From an uncultured Chlamydiales bacterium (GTDB taxonomy: Bacteria; Chlamydiota; Chlamydiia; Chlamydiales; Rhabdochlamydiaceae): DNA of 64,000 nucleotides. The translations under genes were made by a program, and so were the position numbers. Numbering within the stretch: the first letter of the stretch is position 1; every line of letters starts with the position of its first letter. Positions 32,495 to 64,000 of the stretch are shown in pieces. The stretch lies in NCBI GenBank assembly GCA_963700985.1, contig OY969554.1, positions 768,001 to 832,000 on the forward strand, written 5' to 3'. The notes below the pieces were generated by a model. That model was given only the letters and a program-made list of their open reading frames with translations. It was not told the origin of the DNA and made no database searches.

Positions 32495-34624
32495 ATGTTT
32501 ACTAAACATCATTCAAAAACAATTTCGATTGCAGGCAAAGACCTCACCTTTGAAACAGGCAAAATCGCAAGACAAGCCAACGGTGCAGTAACTCTTCGCG
32601 CTGGCGATACTGTTCTATTAGCCACAGCTTGTGCTTCTCCAAAAGCATCAGCTGACATCGACTTTTTCCCTCTACGTGTGGATTATCAGGAAAAATTTTC
32701 TGCCGCAGGTAAATCTCTCGGTGGATTTCTCAAACGCGAAGGCCGCCCTTCTGAGCGCGAGATCCTCACCTGCCGTTTAATCGACCGTCCTCTAAGACCT
32801 ATGTTCGTCGATGGCTATTATAACGAAGTACAAATCCTGGCTTACGTGCTTTCTTATGACAGTGCGCACACACCAGAGCCTCTTGCCATCTGTGCAGCTT
32901 CGGCCGCACTCGTTATCTCTGATATCCCCCTAATTAAGCCTATTGGTGCAGTGCGTGTGGGTCTTATCGACGATAATTTTATCATCAACCCAACACTCGA
33001 AGAGCAAAAGCGTTCAAAACTGGACCTGCTTTTAGCTGGTACTGACGATGCGATCCTCATGATTGAGGGATATGCTGACTTCCTCTCTGAAGAACAATTC
33101 CTGGATGCTATTGAAGAAGGCCATCAGGCTATTCAGAAAATATGCGAAGGTCTATCCGACTGGCAAAAAGAGATCGGCAAGCCTAAGCAAATGGGAGAAC
33201 TCCGCGTTGCTTCAAAAGAGCTCGAAAAAGAGATCGACCAGAGAGCTGCTAGCACGCTAATGGAAGCTTTCAAAATTAAAGACAAAATGGAACGTGACGA
33301 CAAGATCAGCGAACTTAAAGAAACTATTTTGGCTGCTCTTATGCCTGAAGGTGAAGAGCCGAAATATTCTAAAGTCGATATCATGATGTCTTTTAAAAAA
33401 ATTCACGCTCACTACCTCAGACACAAAATTGTTAAAGAGAATCGCCGTAGCGACGGAAGAACTTGCGAAGATATCCGCCAAATCAACGTTGAAACAGGCA
33501 TTTTGCCTCGCACACACGGTAGCGCCCTCTTCACTCGCGGAGAGACACAGGCTTTAGCTGTAGCAACTTTAGGCGGCGAAAGCATGGGCCAACGCTTTGA
33601 AACACTTGAAGGCGAAAGCGCTCACCGTTTCTACTTGCAATACTCTTTCCCTCCTTTCTCAGTAGGTGAAGTCGGCCGCATTGGTTCTGCCGGAAGAAGA
33701 GAAATTGGACACGGCAAACTAGCCGAGCGCGCACTGTATATGACAGTGCCAAGACACGAGAGCTTCCCTTATGTTATTCGTTTAGAATCTAACATCACAG
33801 AGTCTAACGGCTCTTCATCAATGGCTTCTGTTTGCGGATGCTGTCTTGCGCTGATGGATGCAGGCATTCCAATCCAGCGCCCGATTGCAGGGATTGCGAT
33901 GGGTCTGATTCTTGAAGAAGATGGCAAATTTGCGATTCTTTCTGACATTCTCGGGGAAGAAGACTTCCTCGGCGACATGGACTTCAAAATCGCCGGCGAT
34001 GCGCGTGGTATTACTGCTTTCCAACTCGATATCAAAATCGAAGGGATTAATAAGCAGATCATGAAAGCTGCAGTAGCTCAAGCTAAACAAGGCTTGGTAC
34101 ATATCCTGCAAAAGATGTTGGAAGTCTGCCCTAAATCGAAAGAGCATCTTTCAAACTACGCTCCACATATCGAAACCGTTCAAATCAAACCGAGCAAAAT
34201 CGGGATTGTGATTGGACCAGGTGGTAAGCAGATCCGTGCCATTGTTGAAGAAACAGGCGCAGAGATCGACATCAACGATAGCGGACTGGTTAGCATCACA
34301 GCCACCTCTAAAGAATCGATGGAAAAAGCTAAGAAGATCGTGCACGACCTCACAGCAGATGTTGAGATCGGCAAGACCTACACAGGCCGCGTCGTATCCG
34401 TGGTTGAATTTGGATGCTTCGTCGAAATCTTCCCAGGCAAGGAAGGACTTTGCCACATCTCTGAACTCGCACATGCACGCGTCCAAAACGTACGCGATAT
34501 CTGCAAAGAGGGCGACATGATGGAAGTGAAAGTTCTCGACGTTAACGACCGTGGACAGATCAAGCTCAGCCGCAAAGCTCTGCTTCCTCCCCCTGCTCGT
34601 CAAGAAGCTCCCGCCCAAAAGTAA
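32495..34624 (+). CDS. pnp: Polyribonucleotide nucleotidyltransferase
   Basis: [41 protein letters not shown] and S1 domains. Confidence 0.98.
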
Positions 34625-34645
34625 ACTCCCAAGTTACTCATAATC

Positions 34646-34683
34646 AAAAAGACTTCTTCCTTCGGGAAGAAGTCTTTTTTTTT
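34646..34683 (+). terminator. Intrinsic terminator after pnp
   Basis: aaaaagacttcttcc-ttcg-ggaagaagtc followed by a long T run. Confidence 0.85.
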
Positions 34684-34715
34684 GCATCATCATAACATCT
34701 TTTTTATCACTTACC

Positions 34716-34942
34716 CTATAGACATGTCGGGTGACTAAAGTCCCCCGCGACCCCTTGAGCTGTTCATGCTTTGATCAACATTCGCTTCGCTCATTATTGC
34801 GTCCTCGTCGCTGCGTCGTGACAAAGCACTGCCTCGCTCCTGCGGTGCAATTGCTCTTTGCCTGAAACAGCCTCGGGCTGCAACGAGCACTCCTTCCCCA
34901 AACCTACGGTTCGTGGCCCCTTCCATGTCGCGTTGCAGTATC
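34716..34942 (-). repeat. GC-rich structured arm, copy A (inverted relative to B and C)
   Basis: Begins CTATAGACATGTCGGGTGACTAAAGTCCCCCGCGACCCC; near-identical to the reverse complement of copy C over ~150 nt. Confidence 0.92.
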
Positions 34943-34970
34943 AACTTACTAATTTTTACACGAATGTATT

Positions 34971-35032
34971 TGCTCTCTTAAAAATAAATGAATGGTACTG
35001 CGAAGCGATTGGGGAAGAGCGCTAGTTGAAGC
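34971..35032 (+). repeat. Truncated, internally deleted copy of the 5' end of arm B
   Basis: tgctctcttaaaaataaat..atggtactgcga/agcgattggggaagagcgc.agttg.agc repeats 35408-35495 with a 26-nt deletion between GCGA microhomologies. Confidence 0.85.
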
Positions 35033-35098
35033 TGGAAGTAAATAACTCCAATTTACTTCATTGCAAAGAAGCCCTTGCCATCCATATCATTGGGTAAT

Positions 35099-35368
35099 AT
35101 GGGTATTTCGGTTCTAAAAACAGATGAACGAGTAGAGACAGTCTACTTCACTAGAGATTCATTAGTTGTCGATCTCAGGGATGGTCGCACTATCTCTGTT
35201 CCTTTAACTTGGTATCCCAAGTTGCTAAAAGCAGCTCAAAAACAAAGATCGAACTGGGAAATCTGCGGTGGTGGATACGGAATCCATTGGCCAGAAATTG
35301 ATGAAGATTTAAGCACCGAAGGACTATTGCGAGGATCTCCGGCTCCAAAAGTAAAAGTTCGATTGTAG
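35099..35368 (+). CDS. DUF2442 family protein (putative antitoxin), no partner gene
   Basis: L.DGRTISVPL.WYP.L..A...QR.NW.I.GGG.GIHWP.IDEDLS..GLL.G signature. Confidence 0.85.
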   Translation: MGISVLKTDERVETVYFTRDSLVVDLRDGRTISVPLTWYPKLLKAAQKQRSNWEICGGGYGIHWPEIDEDLSTEGLLRGSPAPKVKVRL

Positions 35369-35431
35369 AGACGCTTTTCTAACAATGTAATGCCATATAA
35401 ACTCATATGCTCTCTTAAAAATAAATAGATG

Positions 35432-35759
35432 GTACTGCGACGGGACGCGGAAGGGGTCCCCAGCGAAGCGATTGGGGAAGAGCGCCAGTTGCAGCCCGCG
35501 GCTGTTTCAGGCAAAGAGCAATTGCACCGCAGGAGAGCCCGGTAGGGCGTGCGGGCTGTTGAAGACATGAAAAGGTCCAGTGGACCTTTGTAATGCGAAA
35601 CAGGTGAGCAGAGCGAACCGGGCCCGGAGGGGTACTGTGTACACCCCGCCTTCGAGGACGCAATAATGAGCGAAGCGAATGCTGATCAAAGCATGAACAG
35701 CTCAAAGGGCCAGCAGGGGGCACGGACACATTTGTGCCGTGTCCCCGACATGTCTATAG
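35432..35759 (+). repeat. GC-rich structured arm, copy B (with 117-nt alternative central module)
   Basis: Shares caggcaaagagcaattgcaccgcaggag, cgaggacgcaataatgagcgaagcgaatg and cccgacatgtctatag with A and C. Confidence 0.92.
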
Positions 35760-35773
35760 ACCAAAGAAAAAAA

Positions 35774-35810
35774 TAAAAACGGAGAGGGTATTGAAAAACA
35801 CCCTCTCTTA
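35774..35810 (-). terminator. Intrinsic terminator of the autotransporter gene
   Basis: gagagggt...accctctc stem with an A-run on the left (T-run on minus strand). Confidence 0.7.
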
Positions 35811-35822
35811 TTTAAGAAGTGA

Positions 35823-38800
35823 TTAGAAGCGGTAGGAGAACTCGACGCCGGCGTTGTGGTCGGTGAAATGCTTGCCAAATTCGCCGTCGTAGAAGAGCGA
35901 CCAGATGAGCTTGTCATCCATGTGATAGCCAGTTAAAGCTGCGCCTGGGCTAAAGAGGCTGCGATTTGGTTTCATGCCTGAGACGGTAAAGGGAACATCG
36001 GTTCCGACAAACTCGGCTGTGTAATGTTTACCTTGGAAGCGAATTTCTCTTACCCAGCTGAACTTCACGTCAGGCACAAATTTCCAGGTCTTACGAGTAA
36101 AGCATCTTGCAAATCCTAATCCCAGCTCATTTCTGAGCATTTTAGATTCTTTAGAGCCCACATGCAGATCTAATGATTGCGCGCCTTTTTCGGTGAAGCT
36201 ATTTTCATGCAAGTAGATGTAATCGACTTGATCAAAGGGTCGGATTTCAATCCCTCCCAAGTTAAATAAGAAGCCTGCGCCGAGATCTGCATCGACTTCA
36301 AAACCATCGTGGGTATTTCTAGCTGTGCGATCAAAGATGGGCGAAACGAGCTTACGTGAAGCTTCATAAGAGTTATAGGCACCTAACACCGCGGTGTTAA
36401 CGTAGAAGTAATCGTTAAAATAGCCTCCGTATGCTCCACCGTAATAACTATCGATATCGCCATGCGCTCTCGATACGCTCCAGCGTACGTCGGTATGTGT
36501 GTAACTCAAGGCTGTTCCAAAGAAGAAGTTAGAGAAACAACCGAAATCCATTCCAAGAACGGCACCGCCTGATCTTGTATGGAAACCGCTTTGTCCTTGA
36601 ATACCATCTTCTGCTGAATAATCGCCGATGCCGGTTGCCCAGAGGTCTACTTTATCTTCCGGACTGCAATATTTGATGCAATCGGCGAGATAGAACTCAT
36701 CCATGCGATGCGAGATAGCTTCTCTCACTCTAGTTGTGATGTTTTCTTGAGCCAGAGCTAACCCTTTAAATATCGAAGGTTGCATCTGATTTAAAGCAGC
36801 TTTAATCTCAAGCAGAGGAAGGAAGCGAAGCTCTGCCTCGATGTTGCCTAAGTCTGTTCCAGCGGCTGGATTAATTTCATCGAGCGCCACCGCAACAGCT
36901 TGAGGATTACCCGTAAACCCTAACTCTGCCAAATCCACTTTAGTGACTGAGCCAAAGAGTAGATCGTCAGGCGTATAGATCAAAGTTGCTTTGAAGGTTG
37001 GGAATGTATCGACGACGTTCGTAAAGGTTCCAGTCAACCCACCAAGTGTGTCAATAATGGTGAAGGAAACATTTTTTGGGTAAGAGCCAGGTGTGGGTGT
37101 AATCTCAATCGTGGTATTATTCTCGATAGTGGCGGTTCCCGAGATTATAATTTCGTCCGAAGCCGTTGGGCTAACCTCAATTAAAAGTGTCGAACCCGAA
37201 CCTTGGGTGTAATTTCCATCAATATTTATCGTGCCGATAGAATTACCAGGTGACATCACACCACCGTTTCCTATCGTGACGTCTCCGACAATCGTGCCAG
37301 TTCCACCTAGAGTTCCAGTTCTGCCAAAACCTCCAACTACAGAGACCGGGCTAGTCAGTGTGTTATTTACAAGCAGCGTAGATTGGACATTGGTTTGTGC
37401 TTGTGTAACGCTTCCTGGGAGTGCAAGGGTAAGGCTTGCGGGATTAAGGCCCCCTCCACTTTGTATGTTTAAAGTACCGCTTCCCGTAATTGTTCCCGTA
37501 TATGTGCCGGACGAATGCTGAGTAAAGTTTAAGACGTTGGTGTTCGATACCAAGCTTGTGCTTGGTAAGCTAGAGGTGTCTACAGTTAAAGTTGAAGAGT
37601 TGGTGGTAGGTCCTGAATAGGTATTTGTTCCACCAACAAGATTGAGAGAGCCCGCGTCGGTCACTGTTAATCCGCCGCTTCCTCCGGTAATATTGCCTGA
37701 GAAAGTTCCGAAGCCTGAAGCATCGATGTTTAAGATGTTATTGCCCAGTACAACAGCTGAACCGTTCACGCCATTTAGATTACCGATGGAAGGACCTCCA
37801 ATCACTGTGCTTGCGCTAATATCTAATGTGCCGCTGCCGGTGTCTGCTGTGATATCCGAAGAGATCAAATTGCCATTCCCCGAAAGAGCTAGCGTTCCTG
37901 AATTAATCGTTGTTGAGCCATAGTTGTTAGCAGCTTCAAGTGTAAGCGTATTTGGTCCTATTAAAGTCAGGCCGCCACTCCCTGTAATCGCTGTTGAGAC
38001 TGTGAAGTCAGATTCCACATCGATAGTTGAAGCAGAAGTCAAGGTGATTGTACGTCCTGTTGTTACTGGATTAGTTGCCACCTGAAGAGTTCCACCAGCA
38101 AGTGTGAGGGGATTGGCTGTTAAGCCGAGGTTATTATCTGCGGAGATGCTGATTACCCCAGCATTGATGCTTGTTCCACCTGTATAGGTATTGCTTCCAC
38201 CAAGAGTTAGCGTTCCTGTTCCTTGCATAGTAAGAGATCCGCCTGTGCTGCTTATCACTCCAGAAAAAGTGGTGCTATCGGATGTGCCAACAGTGAGATC
38301 AGTTGGTCCCAATACTAGCAGACCTCCCGAAACTCCCGACAGATCACCGATCGTTTGAGGTGCGCCAGCATTTGTGAGGTCAAGCTTAGCTCCAGAGGCT
38401 GTGATGTTCACGCTGCCAGTAGAAGGGAAAGCCGTGCTTGAGTTGATCTGCAGCGTACCTGCGTTAATATTTGCGCCAGTGAAAGTGTTTGTTCCAGAAA
38501 AGATAGCGATGCCGCTGCCTTGCTTGGTGATCCCAGCTGTGCTGGTTAGATTTCCAGCAAAGGTTGTAGAAGTAGTAGCTGTACCGAAGGTTAGGGCATT
38601 TGCACCCATGGTGAGAAGAGCGCCAGAAACTCCCGAAAGATCGCCGATAGTTTGTGCTGAGCTGCTATTACTGAAATCAAGCGTAGCCCCAGAAGCAGAG
38701 ATATTCGCACTAGCTGTAGAGGGGAAAGCCGTGCTCGCATTGATCTGCAAAGTACCTGCAGAAATGTTTGCACCAGTGAAAGTATTTGTTCCAGAAAAGA

Positions 38801-41800
38801 TGGCGATGCCACTACCTTGCTTGGTGATTCCACCTGTGGCCGTGCTGCTGATATTTCCAGCAAAAGTAGTCGTTGCAGTGGCTGTACCGAAGGTCAGAGC
38901 GTTCGCCCCCATGGTGAGAAGACTGCCAGAAACTCCCGAAAGATCGCCAATGGTTTGTGCTGAGCTGCTATTGCTAAAGTCGAGCTTAGCTCCAGAAGCG
39001 GAGATATTTGCATTAGCTGTAGAGGGGAAAGCCGTGCTCGCATTGATCTGCAGCGTACCTACGTTAATAGTTGCGCCAGCGAAGCTATTTGTTCCAGATA
39101 AGATAGCAGTGCCCGTACCTTGTTTTGTAATCCCTCCCGAACCACTTATGTTTCCTGCAAAGGTTACAGGGGTAGTAGCTGTCCCGAAGGTCAGGGTATT
39201 TGTTCCTAGAGTAACAGATGTGCCTGAAACACCTGTTAAATCGCCTATTACAACTCCCCCAACAACACTGCTCCCGGAGATATCAAAGGTCGAAGTGCCA
39301 GATAAAGATACAGGAGCAGTAGAAGCAAGTGTGCCTCCTACAGAAAGAGCCAGGGTAGAAGAACCATTAAGGTTTGTACCACCAGCGTAGCTATTAGTTC
39401 CTGTTAAGATTAATTTATTGGAGCCAAAGATATTTAATACCCCACCTGTGCCAGAAATCGCTCCTGCGTAGGTATCTGTGGCTGTGGGTGTAATTAACAA
39501 TGGTACGCTTCCAAGTCTTACAAAAGTTCCAGAGGCGCCATTTAAATCGGTAATAGATGCTGAGCCACCAGTATAAGCGCTGACATCAAAGGCGGAAGTT
39601 CCATTCAAATCTAGAGGACCTGAAAAAACGGCTGAAGCTCCAGAAAGCGCAAATGTTGCGGAATTGTTAAGGGTTGCTCCAATGCCAGAACCAACACTAC
39701 CAGTCAATAAGGTCTCTCCAGTTCCACCGATTACGAGTGCCGCCCCAGTAGATCCAGAAATTGTGCCGGCAACTGTGTTTGTTGAACTGGTTTGTATGTT
39801 GAGGGTATTTGTCCCTAAAGAGACTTGGCTGCTTGCCACGCTACTCAAATTGCCGATGGTGGGGCCATCTGTTACAGTACTGCCTGTAATATCAAAAATA
39901 GACGTGGAAGAGTTTACGCTTACAGGGCTTGGTGTTGCGCCACCATTTAAATTACCCGCACCAGTTAGGGCGAGCTCGCCACCATTGATTGTAGTAGTAC
40001 CAGTGTAAGCATTCACGTTGCTAAAACTGATGGTGCCTGTGTTTTGCTTTGTAAAACCACCTGTACCGCTCATGACGCCGGCAAAAGTTGTCGAGTTTGT
40101 GGTACCAGCGGTAAGCGTATTAGCTCCCAAGGTAACAATAGAGCCCGAAGCACCGGTTAAATCGCCAATAACAGGGCTTCCAGTGCTTGCGGAGATATCG
40201 AAGGTACCATTTAAAGTCACAGCTCCTGTAGAGGCAAGTGCCCCGCCTGCTGAAAGGGCAACTGTTGCATTGACTGTCGTTCCACCTGTATAAGTATTAA
40301 CGCCTGTCAGAATGGTTTTACCCGATCCAGTTACAGTCAGTGAAGCGGTGTTTGAAGTGCCGGAAATTACCCCTGCAAAAGTATTAGTTGAACTCGTTTG
40401 TACATTAAGGTTATTCGCGCCTAACGTTACGCTGCTGTTCGCTACCCCGCTTAAGTCACCGATGGTAGGCCCGCCACTAACAGTGTCTGTTGAAATATCA
40501 AAAACAGAGGTGGAAGAGTTTACACTTACAGGACTGGGCGCAGTACCGCCATTTAAACTACCTGCACCAGTTAGAGAGAGCTGGCCACCATTGATTGTGG
40601 TCGTACCAGAGTAACCATTCTGATTGCTAAAAGTGATCGTGCCTGTGTTTTGTTTTGTAAAACCACCCGTACCGTTTATTACGCCAGAAAAGGTGGTTGA
40701 ATTTGCAGTTCCTGCAGTCAGCGTATTGGCTCCTAAGGTAATGATACCCGCGCCAGAGAGATCTCCTACTGTGGGTGCGCCATTATATACGGAGAAGTTC
40801 GTTGTTGTTCCTGTGCCTACAGTTAAGTTGCTTCCCGAAGGGAGGTTACCAGTACTAAGAAAGTTTAAAGTTCCGTTGGTGACTAATGTTCCTCCGGTAT
40901 AGTTATTGGCTGAGCTGCCTAGAGTCAAGGTGCCAATCCCACTTTGAGTCAAAGATCCAGCGCCAGTGATCGGATTAGATAGGGTATGGGTATCTCCGCC
41001 TGCTTGCTGAGCAAATATTCCACCACCTGTTCCTAAAGTGACATTGCGGGCAGAGGTAGTCGTGGCAGCGGTTGTAAGCAGAGTGGATCCATTTTGAATC
41101 GTGAGGGGTGCCCCGGCTGACCCTAAACTCCCATCGCCTGCGATAGATAAGGTTCCTGTGGTTGTGGCTGTACCAATGGTTGTGCCGCCTGAATAGGTAT
41201 TAGAAGTGTTCGTGAGGCTTAGAGTCCCAGGACCGCTTTGGACAAGAAGTCCGCTAGTTGTCGCATTGGCAATAAGGCCGCTGATGGTGTGAGTTACAGC
41301 TGATGACGCCTGGGAGAATGAGCCGCCCCCGCCAGTATTAATACCTAAAGTGAAATTGCGAGAGGAGGATGTTGTTGCCTGAGCATTCAGTGTAGCTCCG
41401 CCGGTAATTGCGACAGCTCCTAAGCCCAAGCTGCTATCGGCGCCGATCGATAGAGTTCCTCCGGTAATTGAGGTCCCGCCAGAATAGATGTTAGGTGTAG
41501 AAAAGGAGGTATTCGTGAGGCTCAAAATACCAGGACCGCTTTGCGTAAGAGAGCCGGGTGTGGAAGCATCGGAAATTATGCCACTGAGCGTATGCGTAAT
41601 GGCTGATGATGATTGGGAAAATACGCCGCCTCCACCAGTGCTTGGTCCTAAATCTATAGGGCGAGCAGATAACGTAGTGCTGGCTGCATTCACAGCTGCC
41701 CCATTGTTAATCGTAAGGGGTCCCCCTACTGCACCTAAAGGATCTAGCGAACTTGTGCCTGTGATTGACAGTGTCCCTGCATTGACGGTCGTTCCGCCTG

Positions 41801-44048
41801 AATAGCTATTAGAGGTATTCGTAAGGCTAAAAGTGCCCGTTCCATCTTTTGTTAAAGTTCCACCACCCGTATCAGAGATCACGCCAGAAAATGTGGAGAC
41901 CGGATTTGTTAGGATCAATCCCTTCGCACTACCTAAAGTCACAAATCCAGAACCAGAGAGATCGACGATACTCGCTGTCGAGCTTGAAATACCGCTAATA
42001 TCAAATGTTCCAATTGCATTTACAAGAGAACTAGTTGCGATAGTTCCTGAACCGGAAAGGCTAAGTATGTTGCCACTGTTGACTGTTGTCTGGCCCGTAT
42101 AAGTATTAACTTCCGTCAAAATCAAAGGATCTGTGCCAGAGGAGATGAGTGCTCCTGCGCCAGAAATGACCGAGTTTACCGTAAAAGGTCCGCTGGTCAG
42201 ACTAAAAGTACCAGTGCCAGCTAAGGTGATAGCTCTCGTCGTTGATTCTGCGTTTGCGGTAGTTGGTGCAAGAGTGCCCCCATTAAAACTTAATGGGTTT
42301 GCCGCAGCTCCTAAGTTGCTATCTGCACTGTATGTGAGCGTTCCACCATTCATCGACGTTGTGCCTGTATACGAGTTCGTACCCGATAGTGTTAACGTTC
42401 CCGTTCCGTTCATCGTTAGACCGCCGGTAGCGGTGCTGCCGCCACCAGTGCCATTATCACTAGCGATGTTTGAGGAAAGGGTAAAGTTGCCGGCTTGACT
42501 AAAGGTAAGTTGAGAGCTCGACATCATAAAAATATCAACACCTAAGGCTACTCCATTCGAGCCTACAGTACCGTTGCCACTGAGTGCGCCGCCTGTCCCA
42601 GCAGTGAGACTGCTTCCCGTAATAGAGGTGACACCGCTTCCGACAGAAGCGCTGTCCTGTATAATCAGAGTTCCTCCGCCGGTAGATCCTCCGTAGAGAA
42701 AAATAGCTCCGCCAAGCGCGGCTCCGCCTCCGCCTCCGCTACCAGCTGTAGCACCAGCGATTACACCGCCTCCACTGCCTCCAAAACCAGCGGTGTCGAC
42801 GCCTCCCGATGCTGCTGTGCTCGTTGTCGTGCGTACAAATGCTCCCCCACCTCCTGCTCCAAAACCAGAATTGGCTCCCGCACCACCACTTGACGCATTT
42901 GAGGAGGCTCCTCCTCCTCCGCCGCCAAAGCCGCCTGCGCCTGGTGAATTTGGAGTTCCATTATTACTATTTGATGCTCCGGAGCCTCCTCCGGCAAAGC
43001 CTCCTGATCCAGCACCACCGGGACCACTACTTGTGCTTGACCCTCCGCTTCCACCACCACCAAAAAGTCCTCCGGATCCACCTCCTGCGCCACCACTAGA
43101 AGTTGAGCTGCCACCTCCTCCGCCTCCCTGGAAGCTAGCACCGCCTTGACCGCCGCCCAAAGTACCCAAAGATCCGCCGCCTCCTGCTCCTCCTGGTTTT
43201 CCTCCTGTTCCTGTGCTCGAACCTCCACCTCCTCCACCAGCGCCAGATGAGCCTCCGCCATTCCCATTAGGAGAGCCGCCTGGAATATTGCCACCACCAC
43301 CACCGCCTCCCCCAAATGATGGATTTCCACCACCGCCAGCTCCGTTACCTAACATTCCTCCGCCACCACTTCCTCCAACGCTACCATTACCTCCATTTCC
43401 AAATAAGCCACCACCAGCTCCTCCAGATGGCACGCTAGAATCTACCCCATTTCCTCCATTACCTCCCATACCAGCACCACCGCCACCTGATATGTTAGTA
43501 CCGCCAGCACCTCCCGTGCCCCCTATCGCTTGTGCATTCGCAATTGTAACGCCATTCAGGGTAACAATGGCTCCAGGTCCCACAAAAAGAGCGCCTCCAG
43601 CAGCCAAACCGCCACCACCGCCGCCGCCGCCAGTTCCCCCATTTCCTCCTTTGGCGATCATGCTTTGTAAAGTCATGTTGTTAATGGTTACATTACCTGA
43701 ATAGGCATAGAAGCCTCGAAAAGTAGATGAGCCAGTGCCGGCAGTGCTGCCATTGAAGCTTGTTCCTCCCGTTACACCATTAATAGTCAAACTATTGGCG
43801 TTGCCGATATTGAAGACGGGTAAGTTAAAGGGGGTCTGTGTTGTGCCCCAGGTTAGCGCACTAAACGGGATAGAGATGATATTTCCTGTGGGATCTGGAG
43901 TTGTATTGATTGAATTAATCGCAGCGCGCAATCCACCTGCAAGCTCGATATCGGCATTGGTTAAGGTAACAGTGGTCACTCCCCATATTGGGTTGGAAAT
44001 GGAAAGTAGGTAAAGGGACCCTAGGATGGATAAGGTTTTCTTGTTCAT
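35823..44048 (-). CDS. Large autotransporter/adhesin (~2740 aa): signal peptide, Gly-rich region, passenger-associated beta-strand repeats, C-terminal beta-barrel
   Basis: MNKKTLSILGSLYLL signal; many G.GTLTLSG.N.Y.G.T.I..GTL repeats; SPGNSIG junction; barrel ending GVEFSYRF. Confidence 0.93.
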   Translation of the reverse strand: MNKKTLSILGSLYLLSISNPIWGVTTVTLTNADIELAGGLRAAINSINTTPDPTGNIISIPFSALTWGTTQTPFNLPVFNIGNANSLTINGVTGGTSFNGSTAGTGSSTFRGFYAYSGNVTINNMTLQSMIAKGGNGGTGGGGGGGGLAAGGALFVGPGAIVTLNGVTIANAQAIGGTGGAGGTNISGGGGAGMGGNGGNGVDSSVPSGGAGGGLFGNGGNGSVGGSGGGGMLGNGAGGGGNPSFGGGGGGGGNIPGGSPNGNGGGSSGAGGGGGGSSTGTGGKPGGAGGGGSLGTLGGGQGGASFQGGGGGGSSTSSGGAGGGSGGLFGGGGSGGSSTSSGPGGAGSGGFAGGGSGASNSNNGTPNSPGAGGFGGGGGGASSNASSGGAGANSGFGAGGGGAFVRTTTSTAASGGVDTAGFGGSGGGVIAGATAGSGGGGGAALGGAIFLYGGSTGGGTLIIQDSASVGSGVTSITGSSLTAGTGGALSGNGTVGSNGVALGVDIFMMSSSQLTFSQAGNFTLSSNIASDNGTGGGSTATGGLTMNGTGTLTLSGTNSYTGTTSMNGGTLTYSADSNLGAAANPLSFNGGTLAPTTANAESTTRAITLAGTGTFSLTSGPFTVNSVISGAGALISSGTDPLILTEVNTYTGQTTVNSGNILSLSGSGTIATSSLVNAIGTFDISGISSSTASIVDLSGSGFVTLGSAKGLILTNPVSTFSGVISDTGGGTLTKDGTGTFSLTNTSNSYSGGTTVNAGTLSITGTSSLDPLGAVGGPLTINNGAAVNAASTTLSARPIDLGPSTGGGGVFSQSSSAITHTLSGIISDASTPGSLTQSGPGILSLTNTSFSTPNIYSGGTSITGGTLSIGADSSLGLGAVAITGGATLNAQATTSSSRNFTLGINTGGGGSFSQASSAVTHTISGLIANATTSGLLVQSGPGTLSLTNTSNTYSGGTTIGTATTTGTLSIAGDGSLGSAGAPLTIQNGSTLLTTAATTTSARNVTLGTGGGIFAQQAGGDTHTLSNPITGAGSLTQSGIGTLTLGSSANNYTGGTLVTNGTLNFLSTGNLPSGSNLTVGTGTTTNFSVYNGAPTVGDLSGAGIITLGANTLTAGTANSTTFSGVINGTGGFTKQNTGTITFSNQNGYSGTTTINGGQLSLTGAGSLNGGTAPSPVSVNSSTSVFDISTDTVSGGPTIGDLSGVANSSVTLGANNLNVQTSSTNTFAGVISGTSNTASLTVTGSGKTILTGVNTYTGGTTVNATVALSAGGALASTGAVTLNGTFDISASTGSPVIGDLTGASGSIVTLGANTLTAGTTNSTTFAGVMSGTGGFTKQNTGTISFSNVNAYTGTTTINGGELALTGAGNLNGGATPSPVSVNSSTSIFDITGSTVTDGPTIGNLSSVASSQVSLGTNTLNIQTSSTNTVAGTISGSTGAALVIGGTGETLLTGSVGSGIGATLNNSATFALSGASAVFSGPLDLNGTSAFDVSAYTGGSASITDLNGASGTFVRLGSVPLLITPTATDTYAGAISGTGGVLNIFGSNKLILTGTNSYAGGTNLNGSSTLALSVGGTLASTAPVSLSGTSTFDISGSSVVGGVVIGDLTGVSGTSVTLGTNTLTFGTATTPVTFAGNISGSGGITKQGTGTAILSGTNSFAGATINVGTLQINASTAFPSTANANISASGAKLDFSNSSSAQTIGDLSGVSGSLLTMGANALTFGTATATTTFAGNISSTATGGITKQGSGIAIFSGTNTFTGANISAGTLQINASTAFPSTASANISASGATLDFSNSSSAQTIGDLSGVSGALLTMGANALTFGTATTSTTFAGNLTSTAGITKQGSGIAIFSGTNTFTGANINAGTLQINSSTAFPSTGSVNITASGAKLDLTNAGAPQTIGDLSGVSGGLLVLGPTDLTVGTSDSTTFSGVISSTGGSLTMQGTGTLTLGGSNTYTGGTSINAGVISISADNNLGLTANPLTLAGGTLQVATNPVTTGRTITLTSASTIDVESDFTVSTAITGSGGLTLIGPNTLTLEAANNYGSTTINSGTLALSGNGNLISSDITADTGSGTLDISASTVIGGPSIGNLNGVNGSAVVLGNNILNIDASGFGTFSGNITGGSGGLTVTDAGSLNLVGGTNTYSGPTTNSSTLTVDTSSLPSTSLVSNTNVLNFTQHSSGTYTGTITGSGTLNIQSGGGLNPASLTLALPGSVTQAQTNVQSTLLVNNTLTSPVSVVGGFGRTGTLGGTGTIVGDVTIGNGGVMSPGNSIGTINIDGNYTQGSGSTLLIEVSPTASDEIIISGTATIENNTTIEITPTPGSYPKNVSFTIIDTLGGLTGTFTNVVDTFPTFKATLIYTPDDLLFGSVTKVDLAELGFTGNPQAVAVALDEINPAAGTDLGNIEAELRFLPLLEIKAALNQMQPSIFKGLALAQENITTRVREAISHRMDEFYLADCIKYCSPEDKVDLWATGIGDYSAEDGIQGQSGFHTRSGGAVLGMDFGCFSNFFFGTALSYTHTDVRWSVSRAHGDIDSYYGGAYGGYFNDYFYVNTAVLGAYNSYEASRKLVSPIFDRTARNTHDGFEVDADLGAGFLFNLGGIEIRPFDQVDYIYLHENSFTEKGAQSLDLHVGSKESKMLRNELGLGFARCFTRKTWKFVPDVKFSWVREIRFQGKHYTAEFVGTDVPFTVSGMKPNRSLFSPGAALTGYHMDDKLIWSLFYDGEFGKHFTDHNAGVEFSYRF

Positions 44049-44346
44049 AAAGGCCAAATTCCTTTGCATATTAAAAAATGCAGTAGAAACTATTAGGATT
44101 TTATTATCAAAAAAAAATGCACCATCAAGCGATGTTTTTTTCCAGATGAGCGATTACGCTATGCAAAGAATACAATCAGATATACTTGGCAAACATGTTT
44201 GGCAGCTCTATTTGGAGTTACTATGACTTTCAGAAATTGAATTAGACCTCCCTCCTAACACTCATTGGCGTATTGAACTTACATTCTCATTTTCGATAGC
44301 AGCTTCACCAATGGCACTTTTAAAACACTACGGATTTGCCCATAAA

Positions 44347-44571
44347 ACTGCGATGGAACGCGGAAGGGGTCCCCAGCGAAGCGTTGGGGGAAGAGCGCCA
44401 ATTGCAGCCCACGACTGCTTCAGGCAAAGAGCAATTGCACCGCAGGAGCGAGGCAGTGCTTTGTCACGACGCAGCGACGAGGACGCGATAATGAGCGAAG
44501 CGAATGTTGATCGAAGCATGAACAGCTCAAGTGGGGTCGCGGGGGACTTTAGTCACCCGACATGTCTATAG
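44347..44571 (+). repeat. GC-rich structured arm, copy C
   Basis: actgcgatggaacgcggaagg...gggactttagtcacccgacatgtctatag; 5' part resembles B, 3' part resembles A. Confidence 0.92.
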
Positions 44572-44600: not shown

Positions 44601-44636
44601 AAAAAAGAGAGGGTGTTTTTTAACACCCTCTCTTTT
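44601..44636 (-). terminator. Intrinsic terminator of ftsH
   Basis: aaaagagagggtgtt/aacaccctctctttt perfect stem flanked by A/T runs. Confidence 0.85.
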
Positions 44637-44657: not shown

Positions 44658-47402
44658 TTAGATTTGCTGGAGAGTAGGATTGTCCGAAGAGGGCTGAATG
44701 CCGCCGCGGGTTGGAGCAGGTGGAGGAGGAGGAACTTTGCGTTGCAAGTCTTCTGTTGCTTTAACGCGTTTTTTCTTCTTCTCTGCATCCCACTTCTCAT
44801 TCATGATCTCAAGCACGTCCTCGCGATCTAAAGTTTCAAACTCGATGAGCATATCTGTCATGAGCTGCACTTTATCGCGGTTGGCATTTACAATTTCGAC
44901 GGCTTTAGCGTGCGCTTCATCCAATAGCTTCTTGACTTCTTCATCGATGAACTTAGCTGTCGATTCAGAATAGTTTTTATCGTGATAAGAAGGCGCACCA
45001 AGGTATTGCCCATTTTCAGAGCGTTCGTCATAAGCCACTGTTCCAAGAACATCGCTCATACCCCATTCGCAGACCATGCTGCGCACAAGGCGCGTAGCTT
45101 GCGAAATATCCATCTGAGCACCAGAAGAAATATCACCTACAAAGATCTCTTCAGCCACACGACCGCCCATAAGAACAGCGAGCTGATCTAAGATCTCTTT
45201 GCGCCAGTAGCTAAGGCGATTCTTTTTCGGCATAAAATGTGTAGCCCCTAAGGACATTCCACGTGGGATAATAGTTACTTTGTCTACAGGGTCAGCGTGT
45301 TTAACCACGAGTGCCACCACCGCGTGACCAGACTCATGGAAAGCTGTGGTCTTGAGCTCGTTTACATCGATCTCAAGGCTACGGCGCTCTTTACCATAAC
45401 GCACTTTATCGCACGCTTCGGCTGCATCTTGGGCAGTTACAGCACTTCGGCCGCGTCTTGCTGCTAAAAGAGCTGCTTCGTTTAAAATATTGGCTAGATC
45501 GGCACCGGAAGAACCTGGTGTGTTTCTAGCGATATACATGAGGTCGACTGAAGGATCTAATTTGATTTTTTTAGCGTGGACTTTCAGAATCTCATAGCGC
45601 CCTTTAATATCTGGAAGATCGAGCACTACACGTCGATCAAAACGACCTGGACGAAGCAGCGCTTTGTCCAACACGTCCGGACGGTTTGTAGCGGCAATCA
45701 GAATAATGCCTTCGGTCGTGTCAAAGCCATCCATCTCAACGAGTAGTTGGTTCAATGTCTGCTCACGCTCATCATGACCGCCGCCAATGCCAGCGCCACG
45801 ATGACGACCCACCGCATCGATCTCATCCATGAAGATGATGCAAGGCGCATTCTTTTTAGCCTCTGAGAAAAGATCACGTACGCGGCTTGCGCCCACACCC
45901 ACGAACATCTCTACGAAATCCGAACCGGAGATCGAGAAGAATGGACGATCAGCCTCACCTGCTACAGCTTTGGCGATTAAGGTTTTACCAGTTCCGGGAG
46001 CTCCGATGCACAACACGCCTTTTGGGATACGTGCACCTAGCGCGGTAAATTTAGAAGGATCTTTTAAGAAGTCGACGATCTCTTGAAGCTCTTCTTTGGC
46101 TTCATCACAACCTGCTACATCTTTAAAGGTGATCTTGTTGCGTTCTTTGGTCAACAGGCGTGCAGGTGACTTACCAAAAGTCATCGCACCTGAACCCGCA
46201 CCCTTCATCTGGCGTGAGAATCCAAAGTAGATCAGCAGCACAATCACAAGCAGCGGCAGAATCGGTAATAGATAGCCGAGGTAGTTAGGAGCGGGCTCTT
46301 CGCTTTTAAATGTTCTTTCCAGAACCGTATTGCGTGGTTGATCAGGAGCTTTAAATACTGCGCCTTTATTCGTGTTGAAATTTTCCCACTCTTGTTTAGC
46401 TTGCAAGAACCAGTGATTATATAGTTCTGGATCTTGTTTTTCTAAAGCACGTGTAGACAATTCTTGGTTATTGAAGAACCAGATTACGCTAGAAACTTGC
46501 TGTCTGGCTTTTTCGAGTTGTGCATCGTTTTTCTCAAGTTCATCAGCAACTTGAGCGTAGCTTTCGATTTCCGTCTTATAATTGCGCACACTGCGTAAGT
46601 CATTTAAGCGAATCCCTTGATCTTCTTGATCGAGGTCAGTGACAACCTTAGATAAAGAGCCAAGAGCTGTGCCATAAGCCGCAAGCGCTGTTTTCTGCTG
46701 GCTTGAATCTGTAATTGAAGCGGAAACCTTTTGCTCTAAGTCACGTAAGTTTTGTTTGATCGTCTCACTGCCAATTCCCAGGTTTGGTGAACGGAAGCCT
46801 TGAATTAGAATTAAAAGGTCTTTGCCAAAGGCATTCAGCTCAGCTGGGCTGCTTGAAGCAGATAGAGCAGCATAACGCTTCTCGAGATCTTTAAGGTTAA
46901 CGACATTTCGATCTGATAAAGATTTGATTACAACCGAGTTTGCGTTATCTGTTGTGTCATAGATAGGATCTACAACTTTATACCCAGTTTTGGGAATTGC
47001 GATTCCACTGAGGTGAAGGAACCAGTCGGCAGCATCTTTAACATTTTGACGTAAAGAGTTTATGCCTTGCTCTAAGCTCGTCTTTTTCTCAGTAAATTCA
47101 TGATTTTGATAGAGCAGATCTAAATAACGAAAGCGCGCTTTAGCTTCGTCTGAAAGTCTGTCTTTAAATTTACCGCTAAAAGTGACGAGGTTATCGTTGA
47201 GGGCAGTCTTACGGCTATCTTCTTTCTGGAGTAGATCCAAGTTGACGAGATGTTCAGTCTGGTGACTGAATGCAACCTTGGCTGTTTTCTCAGAAGAGAG
47301 ATTTTGAATTGAGAAAACAGCTAAGACGGTCGCAACTAAGATGATGAAAAAGCCTCCTGGGAGACCTTTCTTGGAATCTGGTTTTTTATTATCGTTAGCC
47401 AT
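44658..47402 (-). CDS. ftsH: ATP-dependent zinc metalloprotease FtsH (long periplasmic domain, chlamydial type)
   Basis: [48 protein letters not shown]. Confidence 0.98.
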
Positions 47403-58999: not shown

Positions 59000-60325
59000 T
59001 TAACGCTTTTCTGCAGCTTCTTTTTTTTCTTCTCGGACTTCTCGAAGAGAAGATAAAAAGAGTCCAAGCTTCTTAACTGAATCACCTGGAGGCACGAAAG
59101 GCAAAATTGCCCGGATGGCTTGATTGGATCTTTCCAGTGGGTTTTTTCGCAGATCAACTAACCTTAAGCGCACGCACTGAGCTAACTCAGCAGGAATATC
59201 TTTTATCTTACAATGGCGCACAGAAAGCATTCTGAGAGAGGTCAAGCGTCCAATTCCTTTAGATAGACTTGTGAGAGAGGTATAAGATAGGCGTAACCTT
59301 TGTAAGCTGGTTAAATTCCAGAACTCTTCCGGCAGATTTGCAAGTCTGGAATTTTTGTTAAGACAAAGCCTTGTTAATGTAGTTAAATTGCCAAACTCGG
59401 ACGGTAAACTTTCAAGATCATTGCCATCCAATCGGAGTATTTGCAACTCTTCCAACTGTCCAATTTCTGGTGGTAAAATGGTGATCTTATTGAAAGCTAA
59501 ATTTAGAGATTCCAAGCGCCTACAGTTTAGAAGAGGAAGAGGAATGCTCTCAAACATATTGTGGCATAAATCTGCTTCTCTCAGATTGGTGCAGAATTGA
59601 ATTTCCTGAGGTAGGTCTCTGAGCCATATAGTTCCTCTTTCTTCCACTTTCTCATTCATATCGCCATAAGAAATACGCTCTAAACCTCTTAATAATCCCA
59701 CTAAAGGAGGAATGTGCGCGAATCTATGTTTCAAGCCCGTAAATTCATCAATATCGACGCTATTTGTTTGAATAGTCTCTAAAGCGCTTATGTTATATGT
59801 CATCCAGCGCGATACCTCTATTGCAAAGCTCTGTATATTTTGTTGTTCTAAAGGCAACAGCTTAACTATCTCAAAGAGGTGTGGCACTGCAGCATTGGCT
59901 AGGGGTAAATTCGCGGCTATGTCCTTGAAAAAATTAATGATATCGATCGCTCGGGCGAGCTCGGATAAGCTTCTTCGCCCATAACAAAGTTGCGGCTTGG
60001 AAGAGAAAAAAAAGAAGCCAGGTGCTCTTAAGGCCCTTGAACGGATGACCCCAGCGATTTTTTGCACCGCCTTATCGGCTTTTAGAGGCCCATTTAGGCT
60101 ATAATGGCAAACCGTGTCTTTTACCAGACCGCCAATGATGGGATCTGGGCCTTCTTGCAACCGGCTCAGATACATCTTCCATGTATTGGCGAACAACATC
60201 TCTTTTTTGTCTGAAAAGTGATGCGACACCTGTTCCAAAGCATGAGGATAAGGCAAAAAGCCCGCTACACGATCAATCACGGGATTGGGAAGTCTGGGGA
60301 GAATGGAATTTTGAATTGCTGACAT
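59000..60325 (-). CDS. F-box-like/LRR protein, paralog 3
   Basis: LPRLPNPVIDRVAGFL...LEQVSHHF F-box-like N-terminus; 23-aa LRRs; ATG 60325 after AAAAGG. Confidence 0.85.
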   Translation of the reverse strand: MSAIQNSILPRLPNPVIDRVAGFLPYPHALEQVSHHFSDKKEMLFANTWKMYLSRLQEGPDPIIGGLVKDTVCHYSLNGPLKADKAVQKIAGVIRSRALRAPGFFFFSSKPQLCYGRRSLSELARAIDIINFFKDIAANLPLANAAVPHLFEIVKLLPLEQQNIQSFAIEVSRWMTYNISALETIQTNSVDIDEFTGLKHRFAHIPPLVGLLRGLERISYGDMNEKVEERGTIWLRDLPQEIQFCTNLREADLCHNMFESIPLPLLNCRRLESLNLAFNKITILPPEIGQLEELQILRLDGNDLESLPSEFGNLTTLTRLCLNKNSRLANLPEEFWNLTSLQRLRLSYTSLTSLSKGIGRLTSLRMLSVRHCKIKDIPAELAQCVRLRLVDLRKNPLERSNQAIRAILPFVPPGDSVKKLGLFLSSLREVREEKKEAAEKR

Positions 60326-60456
60326 AACTTTACCTTTTAGGCAAAAAATTATATCCAAACTTAAACTACATATCAATAATACAATAATTATTAAACGTAT
60401 TAATAATAAATTTTATTTATAAATAAATAAGACGCTCTCTAATTGAAAGCGCCTTA

Positions 60457-60610
60457 GAGATTGTCCACAAACTAGGCCTTTTAGAGATTTGCGGAGCTTT
60501 TCGATGAGATTTTTTCTCCCTCGACGAAGACAATGTCGGGACGGTGACATGGCTGAGGAAGGGGAGGAAAAAGATCTCAAAGATCGAAGGTCTAGCTTGT
60601 GGACAGTCTC
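60457..60610. mobile_element. Palindromic MITE-like element (154 bp) with TTA target duplication
   Basis: Terminal repeats match at 21/24 (gagattgtccacaaactaggcctt vs reverse-complement gagactgtccacaagctagacctt); TTA on both sides; the paralogous site at 63619-63621 has a single TTA. Confidence 0.85.
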
Positions 60611-60622
60611 TTATATGAAAAG

Positions 60623-60677
60623 ATATGTTCTATTTTCTAGCGAGTTTAGCGATGACAAGACCGCCTAAGAACTAGCC
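60623..60677 (-). pseudogene. Duplicated 3' tip of the DUF1761-like gene (63638+)
   Basis: Reads G*FLGGLVIAKLARK* versus GWFLGGLVIAKLARK* (TGG>TAG). Confidence 0.85.
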
Positions 60678-60720
60678 TAGGAAGACATGTAAGTGGAAAT
60701 CGCTGAATTGTTGCCATAAT

Positions 60721-62094
60721 TCAATCTTGTTTTACGTTTTGTGAAGGTAGCTTAAAGCTTTCGGTGCGCTGGTGCTTATGCACACCACCTTTCTTTTCTT
60801 CACGAGGAGATAAAATGAGTCCGGTTCTGGAAGCAAGATCACCTGGAGGCAAGAAAGGCACAATAGATCGAATTGCTTTATGGGACATTTGTAGCTGGTT
60901 CTCTCGTAGATCAAGCAATGTTAATCTGATGCACGCCGCCATCTCAGCTGGAATCTTCTTTATCTTGCATTGGTGAAGGCTGAGAGTTTCAAGCGAGGTC
61001 AAACGTCCAATCCTGCTAGACAGACTAGTAAGAGCAGTTTTAGATAGATTAAGAGTTCGCAGGCTTGTTAAGCACCAGAACGCTATAGGCAGATTTGCAA
61101 GCCTAGGATTTGAGTTGAGTGAAAGTTTTGTTAACGCAGTTAAGCTGCCAATCTCAGATGGCAATCTTTCAAGATCATTGCCAGATAACCAGAGTGTTTG
61201 TAGCGCTCTCAATTGCCCAATTCGGGGTGGTAAAACGGTGATCTTATTGTAAGCTAAATTTATATGTTCCAAACGTGTGCAATTTAGAAGAGATAGGGGT
61301 ATGCTCTCAAACATATTGCGGCTTAAAATAACTTCTCTCAAGTAGGTACAAGATTCAATTTCCTGGGGTAGATCTTTGAGCCATGTTTTCCCCTTGTCCC
61401 GCATAATCCCCTGTATCACCTGTTCATCATCATGACCGTAAGAAAGTTTTCTTAAGCCCGTTAACAGTCCCACTAAAGGAGGAAGATGAGTGAATTGTGT
61501 TTGATCACGGGTACGGGAAGTAGTTGCATTCAGAGTTATCTGAATACCCCCTAACTGGCCAATGTTAGATACGAGCCAACGAGACACCTCCGCTGCCACA
61601 CCAAGTATGTTCCTCCGCTGCTCAGGCAAAAATCTGACTATGTCCGGAAGTCTTCGAGATGTCACTGCAGCCTCTGCTGAGAAGGTGCCTATGTTCAGGA
61701 AAAAGTTTGTGATATCAGCTGCTCGGGCAATCTCTGATAAACTCCTTCGATCATAAGGACCGCGTGGCAGAGGAGGAAAAGAGAGCGTTATGATTCTTGC
61801 CTTTGAAATGATGGTCGCGCTGATCTGTTTTACAACCAGATCTGTTTTTAGAGGCACATTTTTGCTGTAATGTTGAACAACTCCATTTACTAGACCGCCT
61901 ATGATGAGATCTGGACCTTCTTGCAGGCGCTTCAAAAGCATCTTCCACGTACCGCCAAACAACTTATCCCTATTATCTGAAAAGTAGTGTGACACCCGCT
62001 CCAGATTATGAGGATGAGGCAAAAAGCTCGCCACGTGATCAACATGAAAATAGGGAAGTCTTGTCAGTAGAGATCTTTGAATTGTTGAGGACAT
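60721..62094 (-). CDS. F-box-like/LRR protein, paralog 2
   Basis: LLTRLPYFHVDHVASFL..LERVSHYF; shared RLQEGPD.IIGGLV; LRRs. Confidence 0.85.
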   Translation of the reverse strand: MSSTIQRSLLTRLPYFHVDHVASFLPHPHNLERVSHYFSDNRDKLFGGTWKMLLKRLQEGPDLIIGGLVNGVVQHYSKNVPLKTDLVVKQISATIISKARIITLSFPPLPRGPYDRRSLSEIARAADITNFFLNIGTFSAEAAVTSRRLPDIVRFLPEQRRNILGVAAEVSRWLVSNIGQLGGIQITLNATTSRTRDQTQFTHLPPLVGLLTGLRKLSYGHDDEQVIQGIMRDKGKTWLKDLPQEIESCTYLREVILSRNMFESIPLSLLNCTRLEHINLAYNKITVLPPRIGQLRALQTLWLSGNDLERLPSEIGSLTALTKLSLNSNPRLANLPIAFWCLTSLRTLNLSKTALTSLSSRIGRLTSLETLSLHQCKIKKIPAEMAACIRLTLLDLRENQLQMSHKAIRSIVPFLPPGDLASRTGLILSPREEKKGGVHKHQRTESFKLPSQNVKQD

Positions 62095-62114
62095 AGTTTC
62101 TCTTTATTTAACTT

Positions 62115-63494: not shown

Positions 63495-63590
63495 AATTTC
63501 ACCTTTTAGGCAAAAAAATATATCAAAAACAGAACTATTTATCAATAATCATTTAATAAAAAACATTAATTATAATTTTATTTATAAATA

Positions 63591-63620
63591 AAAAAGGCGC
63601 TTTCTATCTGAAAGCGCCTT
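63591..63620 (-). terminator. Intrinsic terminator of the DUF1761-like gene
   Basis: aaggcgctttc/gaaagcgcctt stem plus T-run on minus strand; decayed copy at 60429-60455. Confidence 0.75.
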
Positions 63621-63637
63621 ATGCGAGAAAATATGTT

Positions 63638-64000
63638 CTATTTTCTAGCGAGTTTTGCGATGACAAGACCGCCTAAGAACCAGCCAATGATTAGATCAAG
63701 CATACATACGATCGTGAAGCCGAAAGCCGCTCCGCCCCAAATCAAATCTGGCACGTAAGTGATTATCCCTGCAATGAGAGCAATTGTGGTTACAAACCCC
63801 ACTTGTCTCATGTAAGGCATCACTTTGGTCATCAGCAAAAGCCAAGTGATTAGATAAGCCGCAATAATTTGTACAATCAAGGCGAGCACAAAAGGAAGTG
63901 GGCCTTCCATTTTCATGCCATTTTTTTGAACTGTAGCAAATATAACTGGGCCTGTCTTCATCATCTCTTTGCCATGCATAACCGCTTCATTCTTCTCACT
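63638..64000 (-). CDS. Membrane protein, DUF1761-like, 5'-truncated by window edge
   Basis: Three hydrophobic helices ending DLIIGWFLGGLVIAK. Confidence 0.55.
   Translation of the reverse strand, partial: SEKNEAVMHGKEMMKTGPVIFATVQKNGMKMEGPLPFVLALIVQIIAAYLITWLLLMTKVMPYMRQVGFVTTIALIAGIITYVPDLIWGGAAFGFTIVCMLDLIIGWFLGGLVIAKLARK

Follow-up and report, generated by a model that had tools for sequence, protein, structure and literature searches.

Three arms between pnp and ftsH probably belong to a transposase-less mobile element of environmental chlamydiae with a conserved strand-specific fold

Three related stretches of DNA, named here arms A, B, and C, are located between the genes pnp and ftsH in the window, which is the whole stretch of 64,000 nucleotides (64 kb) that was analyzed and which comes from a single-contig 2.07-Mb genome. 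They raise the question of what kind of sequence was repeated at this locus, whether its folding pattern has been maintained, and how it may have reached a site between convergent genes. The arms are copies of one non-coding module of about 235 nt. Arm A (34716..34938, minus strand) is a full module of the short-module subtype, which reads outward to pnp and was matched by the covariance model R1 with 148 bits (E 8.8e-39). Arm B (35435..35759, plus strand) is a full module with a 117-nt expansion at 35536-35652 (146.6 bits, E 2e-38), and arm C (44348..44571, plus strand) is again a full module, reading outward to ftsH (141.3 bits, E 5.3e-37). These three were the only R1 matches in the 64-kb window (141 to 148 bits, E around 1e-37), and the same helices covary in 120 distinct copies of other genomes, so that the likeness of A, B, and C is not due to chance. 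In a repeat search, A and C were 88% complementary over 167 nt and 100% complementary over the terminal 39 nt. All three arms terminate in the invariant 3' end CCGACATGTCTATAG, which is at 35745-35759 in B. The z value of the RNA fold was −3.7 for B, and for C it was −1.9 in sense and +0.3 in antisense.

The sequence-only reading had described the arms as a structured single-strand family with compensatory changes and exchangeable modules, and the parts it had named were found again in the window sequence. Stem 1 reads CTGCAAC/GTTGCAG in A and CTGCGAC/GTTGCAG in B, and C has CTGCGAT/ATTGCAG at this place, with a G·T wobble in B and C and an exchange of a C-G for a T-A pair from B to C. Stem 2 contains the CTGTTTCA/TGAACAG helix (CTGCTTCA in C) above a base of GCCC/GGGC in B and CCCAC/GTGGG in C. 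The inner helix ATTGC/GCAAT, with GCGAT and a wobble in C, surrounds a variable module between CCGCAGGAG and CGAGGAC. The length of this module is 117 nt in arm B, compared to 29 nt in each of the other two arms, as had been claimed. The terminal hairpin differs between the arms as well, being longer in B than in A and C according to the alignment. The 117-nt module of B is also present in a degenerate copy 480 kb away, and C combines an A-like interior with B-like flanks.

The surroundings of the arms indicate where this sequence was placed. The pnp gene (32495-34624, identified by Pfam) is located to the left and is followed by a terminator-like hairpin (34646..34679, plus strand), a 15-pair stem with a subsequent T run, and arm A ends 37 nt away from it. 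To the right are ftsH (44658-47402, Pfam) and tilS; the terminator-like hairpin after ftsH (44603..44636, minus strand) is positioned 32 nt beyond arm C. Between B and C, a gene for 2,748 amino acids (35823..44069, minus strand) contains PATR repeats, with PF12951 found in 13 stretches (E 7.7e-42), and possesses its own terminator-like hairpin (35782..35807, minus strand), which is homologous to the hairpin after C (91% complementary, 81% identical). Taken together, the arms end 22 to 37 nt from terminator-like hairpins of convergent genes. The large open reading frame itself has internal repeats of about 300 nt (38246-39145 and 39754-40659) and resembles an autotransporter passenger.

An AT-rich central spacer (34939..34999, no strand assigned) lies between the 5' end of arm A and that of a stub of the 5' domain of an arm (35000..35032, plus strand), which is 94% identical to 35463-35495. 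Positions 34968-35008 are 88% identical to 35405-35445, and the stub with its upstream 32 nt (34968-34999) thus duplicates the start of B plus its 5' flank. A DUF2442 gene (35099..35368, plus strand; PF10387, E 6.3e-24) follows the stub. The direct duplication of 65 to 90 nt, composed of the spacer end and the arm start (34968-35032 and 35405-35495), brackets this gene, and it looks as if the DUF2442 gene had been inserted or recombined into the start of arm B.

The genes pnp and ftsH are neighbors in Chlamydia trachomatis. Arms A and C would be the outermost arms of a unit inserted between these two genes, and B, the arm stub, the DUF2442 gene, and the giant PATR-repeat gene would be enclosed between them. 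In the loci that surround the end of pnp in five genomes of the same genus, no arm was present; the genes after pnp differed in the two same-genus genomes read, and no clean empty site could be aligned among these same-genus loci. The R1 model revealed no partner arm adjoining C.

Evaluation of the fold was based on a larger collection of arms. A total of 44 distinct full-length arms were collected, 36 of which were aligned and checked by hand (alignment A3), and a structure of 57 pairs in 11 helices was derived from recurrent minimum-energy folds and RNAalifold. In A3, 89.3% of the cells form a pair, compared to 33 to 45% when the partners are slid, and changes on both sides of a pair occur at 38 of the 57 pairs, with none of 500 shuffles attaining the observed values. 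The covariance model R1 aligned 129 matches from 75 loci, 120 of them distinct. In this R1 alignment, which is biased towards the input structure because it was fitted to a model built with that structure, 91.7% of the cells pair versus 27 to 50% with slid partners, and two-sided compensatory changes are present at 50 of the 57 pairs, again with 0 of 500 shuffles as high. The covariation that had been proposed from three copies thus persists in a larger alignment. In helix 8, a tandem G·A often replaces the Watson-Crick pairs.

The same data indicate which strand folds. The paired columns contain 244 G·U or U·G cells versus 67 A·C or C·A cells, and when 70 arms drawn from the 110 arms of at least 180 nt were folded, the sense strand was more stable than the antisense strand in 67 of them, with a mean difference of 6.8 kcal/mol. 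The excess of G·U pairs and the stability of the sense strand mean that a single strand, the sense strand, folds, and the preference of the wobbles for the strand first reported was therefore borne out. The two arms of a head-to-head pair share 74.6% identity on average (44 pairs), and at 369 of 538 differing helix positions both arms are still paired. Since the arms differ and each nevertheless stays paired, it is the own fold of each arm that is conserved and not the pairing between the arms. Each arm folds alone and strand specifically, and this fold is kept by compensatory changes.

Conservation is not limited to the helices. The unpaired stretches GCAGCC, CGCAGGAG, CGAGGAC, and GACAUGUCUAU are invariant, and it is the end motif that shows the highest conservation over five families. 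The long-range helices join strands about 130 nt apart. A helix that closes the arm by pairing its 5' leader (TGGYN) with its 3' trailer (RGRRGCC) is tentatively assigned: at least four contiguous Watson-Crick pairs are possible in 33 of 103 arms, compared to 17.9 ± 3.7 arms after shuffling, and none of 500 shuffles reached 33, with a fixed-register test giving a weak result. An extra junction helix GCC/GGC is uninformative because its columns are invariant. Columns 506 and 649 of alignment A4 (around 35711 and 35743 in B) are T and A in 44 sequences and C and C in 34. The T at column 506 precedes the terminal hairpin and occurs together with an unpaired A in the 3' strand of this hairpin, and the C-C sequences have a perfect hairpin. 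This correlation may reflect a tertiary contact or solely a subfamily signal.

A protein-coding function of the arms was rejected, the lengths of 110 arms being evenly spread over the residues modulo 3 (34, 38, and 38); open frames alone are uninformative because 41 of these 110 GC-rich arms are free of stop codons in some frame. The scan for an already described RNA family, which the sequence-only reading had suggested, yielded no match for the arms: at the gathering thresholds of Rfam 15, the whole window contained only tRNA, and at E ≤ 10 nothing of likely meaning was positioned on the arms in the region 34600-35900, where a few weak matches overlapping B remained far below the gathering scores. 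Neither HEARO nor another Rfam family matched the arms, and collections of plasmids and phages contained no match to arm C. Literature searches yielded no description of this element; an IS982-derived MITE of Cardinium is unrelated (PMC9769881).

Signals for an own transcription unit were sparse. No sigma-70-type promoter was found upstream of A, B, or C or in the spacers of two recent elements, and a position count over 107 arms revealed a weak TAAnnT at −10 to −5 before the arm. The recent elements contained no terminator of their own in the form of a hairpin with a T run beyond the arms, all such matches being inside the arms or the spacer.

The distribution of the arms is patchy. The 15-mer end motif was matched exactly in 117 stretches, mostly by chance, and the full-length arms identified were in chlamydial genomes, in records labeled Chlamydiae, Rhabdochlamydiaceae, Verrucomicrobia, or Verrucomicrobiae, or at loci without a displayed title. 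The genome of the window contains 10 arm loci, several of them truncated and two consisting of termini only. In a survey of the family, 57 of 129 genomes, belonging to 22 of 40 genera, contained arms, and 72 genomes were without a copy; the number of arms per genome reached 102, 64, 52, 34, and 27 in five relatives. A class-wide sample contained arms in 21 of 151 genomes, 10 of which belong to four other families (5 of 18, 2 of 17, 2 of 19, and 1 of 14 genomes, respectively), and a small-genome family (f28) had arms in none of 27 genomes. Many copies are truncated or decayed.

The arms are nearly always arranged head-to-head, with a distance between their 5' ends that ranges from a few bases to a few hundred and with the 3' motif directed outward, so that they form imperfect palindromes of about 500 bp; in 44 pairs from other genomes, the spacer between the 5' ends was shorter than 400 nt. 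The unit may be viewed as two outward-facing modules of about 235 nt around a short spacer, each ending in a hairpin followed by CCGACATGTCTAT, and in some lineages this unit is wrapped in short outer inverted repeats of different transposon types. Cargo within the pairs comprised genes for DUF2442 and HNH_2 (both by Pfam), a 291-aa open reading frame that we take from its translation to be a short-chain dehydrogenase, and a four-gene block that was likewise assigned from its translations. There was no transposase among these cargo genes inside the pairs.

Several local arrangements accompany the arms. At one locus (L048, 601-813), a 99-nt 3' part of an arm, composed of the terminal hairpin, CCGACATGTCTATAG, and about 30 nt, is present three times in tandem. 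In genome G009 (loci L184, L189, L193, L198, and L201), every arm is followed by about 25 A-rich bases and then by a GC hairpin of the GGGCTC-GAAGA-GCCC type, which covaries between the copies and could represent either an outer end particular to this lineage or a REP-like site that is targeted. The genome of the window contains duplicated segments that are 93 to 99% identical, C1:856658-858509 with 1823531-1825382, and C1:1576826-1578244 with 2059733-2061150 and 2062793-2064053. They adjoin degenerate arm loci at 858582, 1580594, and 2058471 and may be cargo that was copied together with the arms.

The unit is mobile in relatives of the organism. Two copies in genome G082 are nearly identical along about 860 bp, their unit extends about 60 nt past the arm and ends with CAGGG, and both copies are flanked by perfect 10-bp duplications, TGCGGCTGCG and TAATAACCCG. 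In G200, which belongs to another family, copies are 99% identical, possess GGCATGGTTCAAAAT ends, and have a perfect 8-bp duplication in three of four cases. This means that two kinds of ends exist, CAGGG with 10-bp and GGCATGG with 8-bp duplications, and the same module within differing ends indicates that it rides in at least two kinds of shell. In G200, the GGCATGGTTCAAAAT end motif was counted 59 times, the derivatives that contain it being 176 to 679 bp long, and in most copies there one arm is complete and the other is reduced to a stub of 61 nt. Because these one-armed variants are the most common ones, two arms are not needed for movement. Genome G004 harbors 53 exact termini, paired at a spacing of 45 to 598 bp, with no pair of the size of an insertion sequence. 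Both ends are still present in the deletion derivatives (45 to 320 bp), and units of 45 to 79 bp (in G004, G000, and G002) retain exactly the terminal hairpin and the motif.

Evaluation of the copies in the window needs to consider their age. No target duplication, searched as a direct repeat of at least 7 bp, was found at nine loci of the own genome, including A..B and A..C, in a test that is weak because these copies look old. At 18 pair loci from other genomes, perfect 10-bp duplications were present at two and none at 14, and at L158 and L162 there was solely a 7-bp candidate, which was not accepted. The copies in G004, which is of the same genus, are 73 to 87% alike, which indicates that the own genus holds old copies, and the mobility of the copies in the window is inferred from the relatives.

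A source of the transposase was sought among known families. Genome G082 contains at least 13 copies of an ISAs1-family element of about 1,305 bp; four of them, when aligned, were near-identical with CAGGGCC ends (CAGGGCCATTTAAC), and the two that were read have 10-bp duplications, which looks like an active burst of an insertion sequence in an environmental chlamydia. For the ISAs1 member ISArsp11, inverted repeats with CAGGG and a direct repeat of 10 bp have been published (PMC6305408), so that the arm element of G082, the two resident copies read, and ISArsp11 share CAGGG ends and the length of the duplication. Beyond CAGGGC and a few more bases, the ends of the G082 element and of the resident insertion sequence are only loosely similar, and no arm sequence is present within the four aligned copies. 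No ISAs1 transposase was found in G000, G004, G001, and G088 or in any of five genomes of the own genus, that of the window included, and another lineage has other ends with 8-bp duplications. Of the 129 genomes of the family, 43 have ISAs1 and 57 have arms. The two do not go together across the family, both being present in 15 genomes versus about 19 expected by chance.

Other enzymes did not fit either. The Y1/HUH transposase PF01797 (RAYT) was absent from G000, G004, and G088, and TnpB (PF07282) was absent from G000, G004, and G001, all of the own genus, and present in the arm-less genome G066. As candidates for a transposase of the own genus, TnpB, Y1_Tnp, DDE_3, and ISAs1 were all rejected; they are absent from G000 and G004. 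The own genome contained no multi-copy insertion sequence, no partner insertion sequence of the G200 shell was located beside the two solo ends read, and no recombinase or nuclease gene recurred beside or inside the pairs. Genome G001 possesses a Y1 (RAYT-like) gene at L227, 1278-2235 (G001:C1:323577-324534), between 176-nt inverted arms, each of which is a palindrome of 84 + 84 nt. These flanking palindromes are unrelated to the arms described here, no arm or terminus motif was found near this gene, and the locus looks like a separate REPIN-type system in the same genus.

The number of copies is variable and these are dispersed, inverted ends and target duplications are present in relatives, no transposase is located inside, and the deletion derivatives keep the ends. 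With a probability of about two in three, the three arms are parts of a mobile MITE-type element that lacks a transposase, occurs in environmental chlamydiae, and has a conserved structured passenger. Hairpin MITEs such as Correia/NEMIS, ERIC/IRU, RUP, bcr1, and the QMITEs of Coxiella are likewise non-coding, transposase-less, intergenic, and dispersed, with inverted ends, target duplications, and deletion derivatives, often beside terminators, and with a copy number that varies among relatives. The two halves of these elements pair into one long hairpin. In contrast, each half of the chlamydial element is a separate, strand-specific fold of 235 nt and 11 helices that covaries independently of its partner, and the module is conserved over five bacterial families and occurs in shells with two kinds of ends. 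The pneumococcal BOX elements, which are modular A-B-C repeats, resemble the arms in their modularity, in internal modules that can be absent or exchanged, and in the stable fold predicted for them. The sequence-only reading had tentatively placed motifs of the arms in BOX and in the RPE elements of Rickettsia; evidence of a relationship in sequence to BOX was not found, the named records with full arms being chlamydial or verrucomicrobial by label or without a displayed title.

Two further systems resemble the element in part. REPs are defined by a GTAG or CGTC tag. Inverted hairpin doublets connect the chlamydial element with the REP/REPIN-RAYT systems, and the shortest derivatives (45 to 79 bp) look REPIN-type, but a REP has about one tenth of the length of a full arm, G000, G004, and G088 have no RAYT, and the sole RAYT examined in the genus has its own unrelated palindromes. 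The omega-RNA of TnpB and the bridge RNA of IS110 are structured non-coding modules at a transposon end that read outward, as the arms do, whereas the chlamydial arms have no partner protein gene and no Rfam match and are mirror-imaged at both ends.

If A, B, and C are arms of such a MITE-type element, the function of its passenger has to be considered. The upkeep of the fold, which is unusual among such elements, may point to an RNA with its own function. The fold would be a passenger acting as RNA, and this RNA would be made by read-through from the neighboring genes; read-through is the likeliest source since the search for internal promoters gave nothing beyond a weak −10-like signal. Due to the palindromic layout, one sense copy would enter the transcript from either side. 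The sense arm might then serve as a compact 3' structure or as a site for binding or processing, and such a role may lower the cost of the insertion or aid the persistence of the element. Considering the invariance of the unpaired stretches, specific recognition is more plausible than mere stability.

Other explanations assign a different origin or meaning to the fold. The arm could be a functional RNA in its own right, protein-binding or catalytic, with invariant junction bases and a palindromic GACAUGUC tail, riding in unrelated transposon shells. This is a possible but not a probable reading; if true, it would be the bacterial counterpart of a structured-RNA hitch-hiker, with selection acting on the RNA and not on the transposon, and the mirror pair would guarantee a sense copy for either direction of transcription. 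The complex junction with invariant unpaired GCAGCC, CGCAGGAG, CGAGGAC, and GACAUGUCUAU, the weak −10-like TAAnnT at −10 to −5, and the occurrence of the module in shells with two kinds of ends would also agree with ordinary divergent pairs of small-RNA genes that are transcribed from the spacer and that MITEs of a few lineages have captured secondarily. Such genes are an improbable explanation considering the 72 of 129 family genomes without any copy next to others with up to 102, the lack of an arm at the pnp site in five genomes of the same genus, the many truncated copies, and the lack of a sigma-70-type promoter or an own terminator in the recent elements. A guide-type RNA, similar to omega-RNA or bridge RNA, whose 3' flank directs a nuclease or recombinase encoded elsewhere, would have the geometry of the TnpB right-end RNAs, a structured scaffold inside the end that reads into the flank. 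This is very hard to reconcile with the absence of TnpB from three genomes of the own genus and its presence in a genome without arms, with the lack of a recurrent recombinase or nuclease gene at the pairs, and with the lack of a match to HEARO or another Rfam family, so that little credence is given to it.

The fold may alternatively act as single-stranded DNA in transposition or replication, the terminal hairpin and GACATGTCTAT being a site for a strand-specific enzyme, as in IS200/IS605 or REP-RAYT. In favor of this, the strand that bears the sense arm always has its 3' end directed outward from the element, and what remains in the shortest derivatives (45 to 79 bp; G004, G000, and G002) is precisely the terminal hairpin plus the motif. 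In addition, the recent elements yielded no internal promoter, and no other stretch is as conserved across five families as the end motif. Such a site would require the terminal hairpin alone and not 11 helices, however, and the recent copies carry ordinary inverted ends with 8- or 10-bp duplications, which are the mark of a DDE cut-or-copy reaction. One-armed variants still spread, PF01797 is absent from G000, G004, and G088 with the copy in G001 having other palindromes and no arm nearby, and TnpB is absent from G000, G004, and G001, all of which makes an action as single-stranded DNA unlikely. A fold without any function, with matched changes from template switching at quasi-palindromes and gene conversion, would be a by-product of a palindrome-rich selfish repeat. 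Modules are visibly swapped, as seen for the module of B in the copy 480 kb away and for C with its A-like inside and B-like flanks, and many copies are decayed. Template switching gives perfect pairs on both strands and leaves the 244 G·U versus 67 A·C cells unexplained, as well as the long-range helices with strands about 130 nt apart and the unpaired junction bases that are invariant across five families, and a functionless fold has accordingly a low probability.

The MITE-type element with a structured passenger, if correctly assigned, differs from the usual picture of MITEs, which are seen as decaying transposon stubs that are constrained only at their ends. Here, the interior is the conserved part, a large strand-specific fold of several helices with matched mutations in at least five chlamydial families and in two kinds of shells. 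If this fold works as RNA, it would represent a new class of structured RNA in environmental relatives of Chlamydia that was spread by transposition and not by descent, and it would provide a handle on how intracellular bacteria tolerate or use repeats between convergent genes. The model R1 flags palindromes of about 500 bp that break assemblies and confuse annotation in these genomes.

Another repeat is located in the window at some distance from the arms. Positions 59039-63690 comprise three diverged copies, 68 to 73% identical, of a unit of 1.4 to 1.8 kb with conserved short blocks, and this unit contains a repeated segment of 48 to 73 nt with 90% identity.
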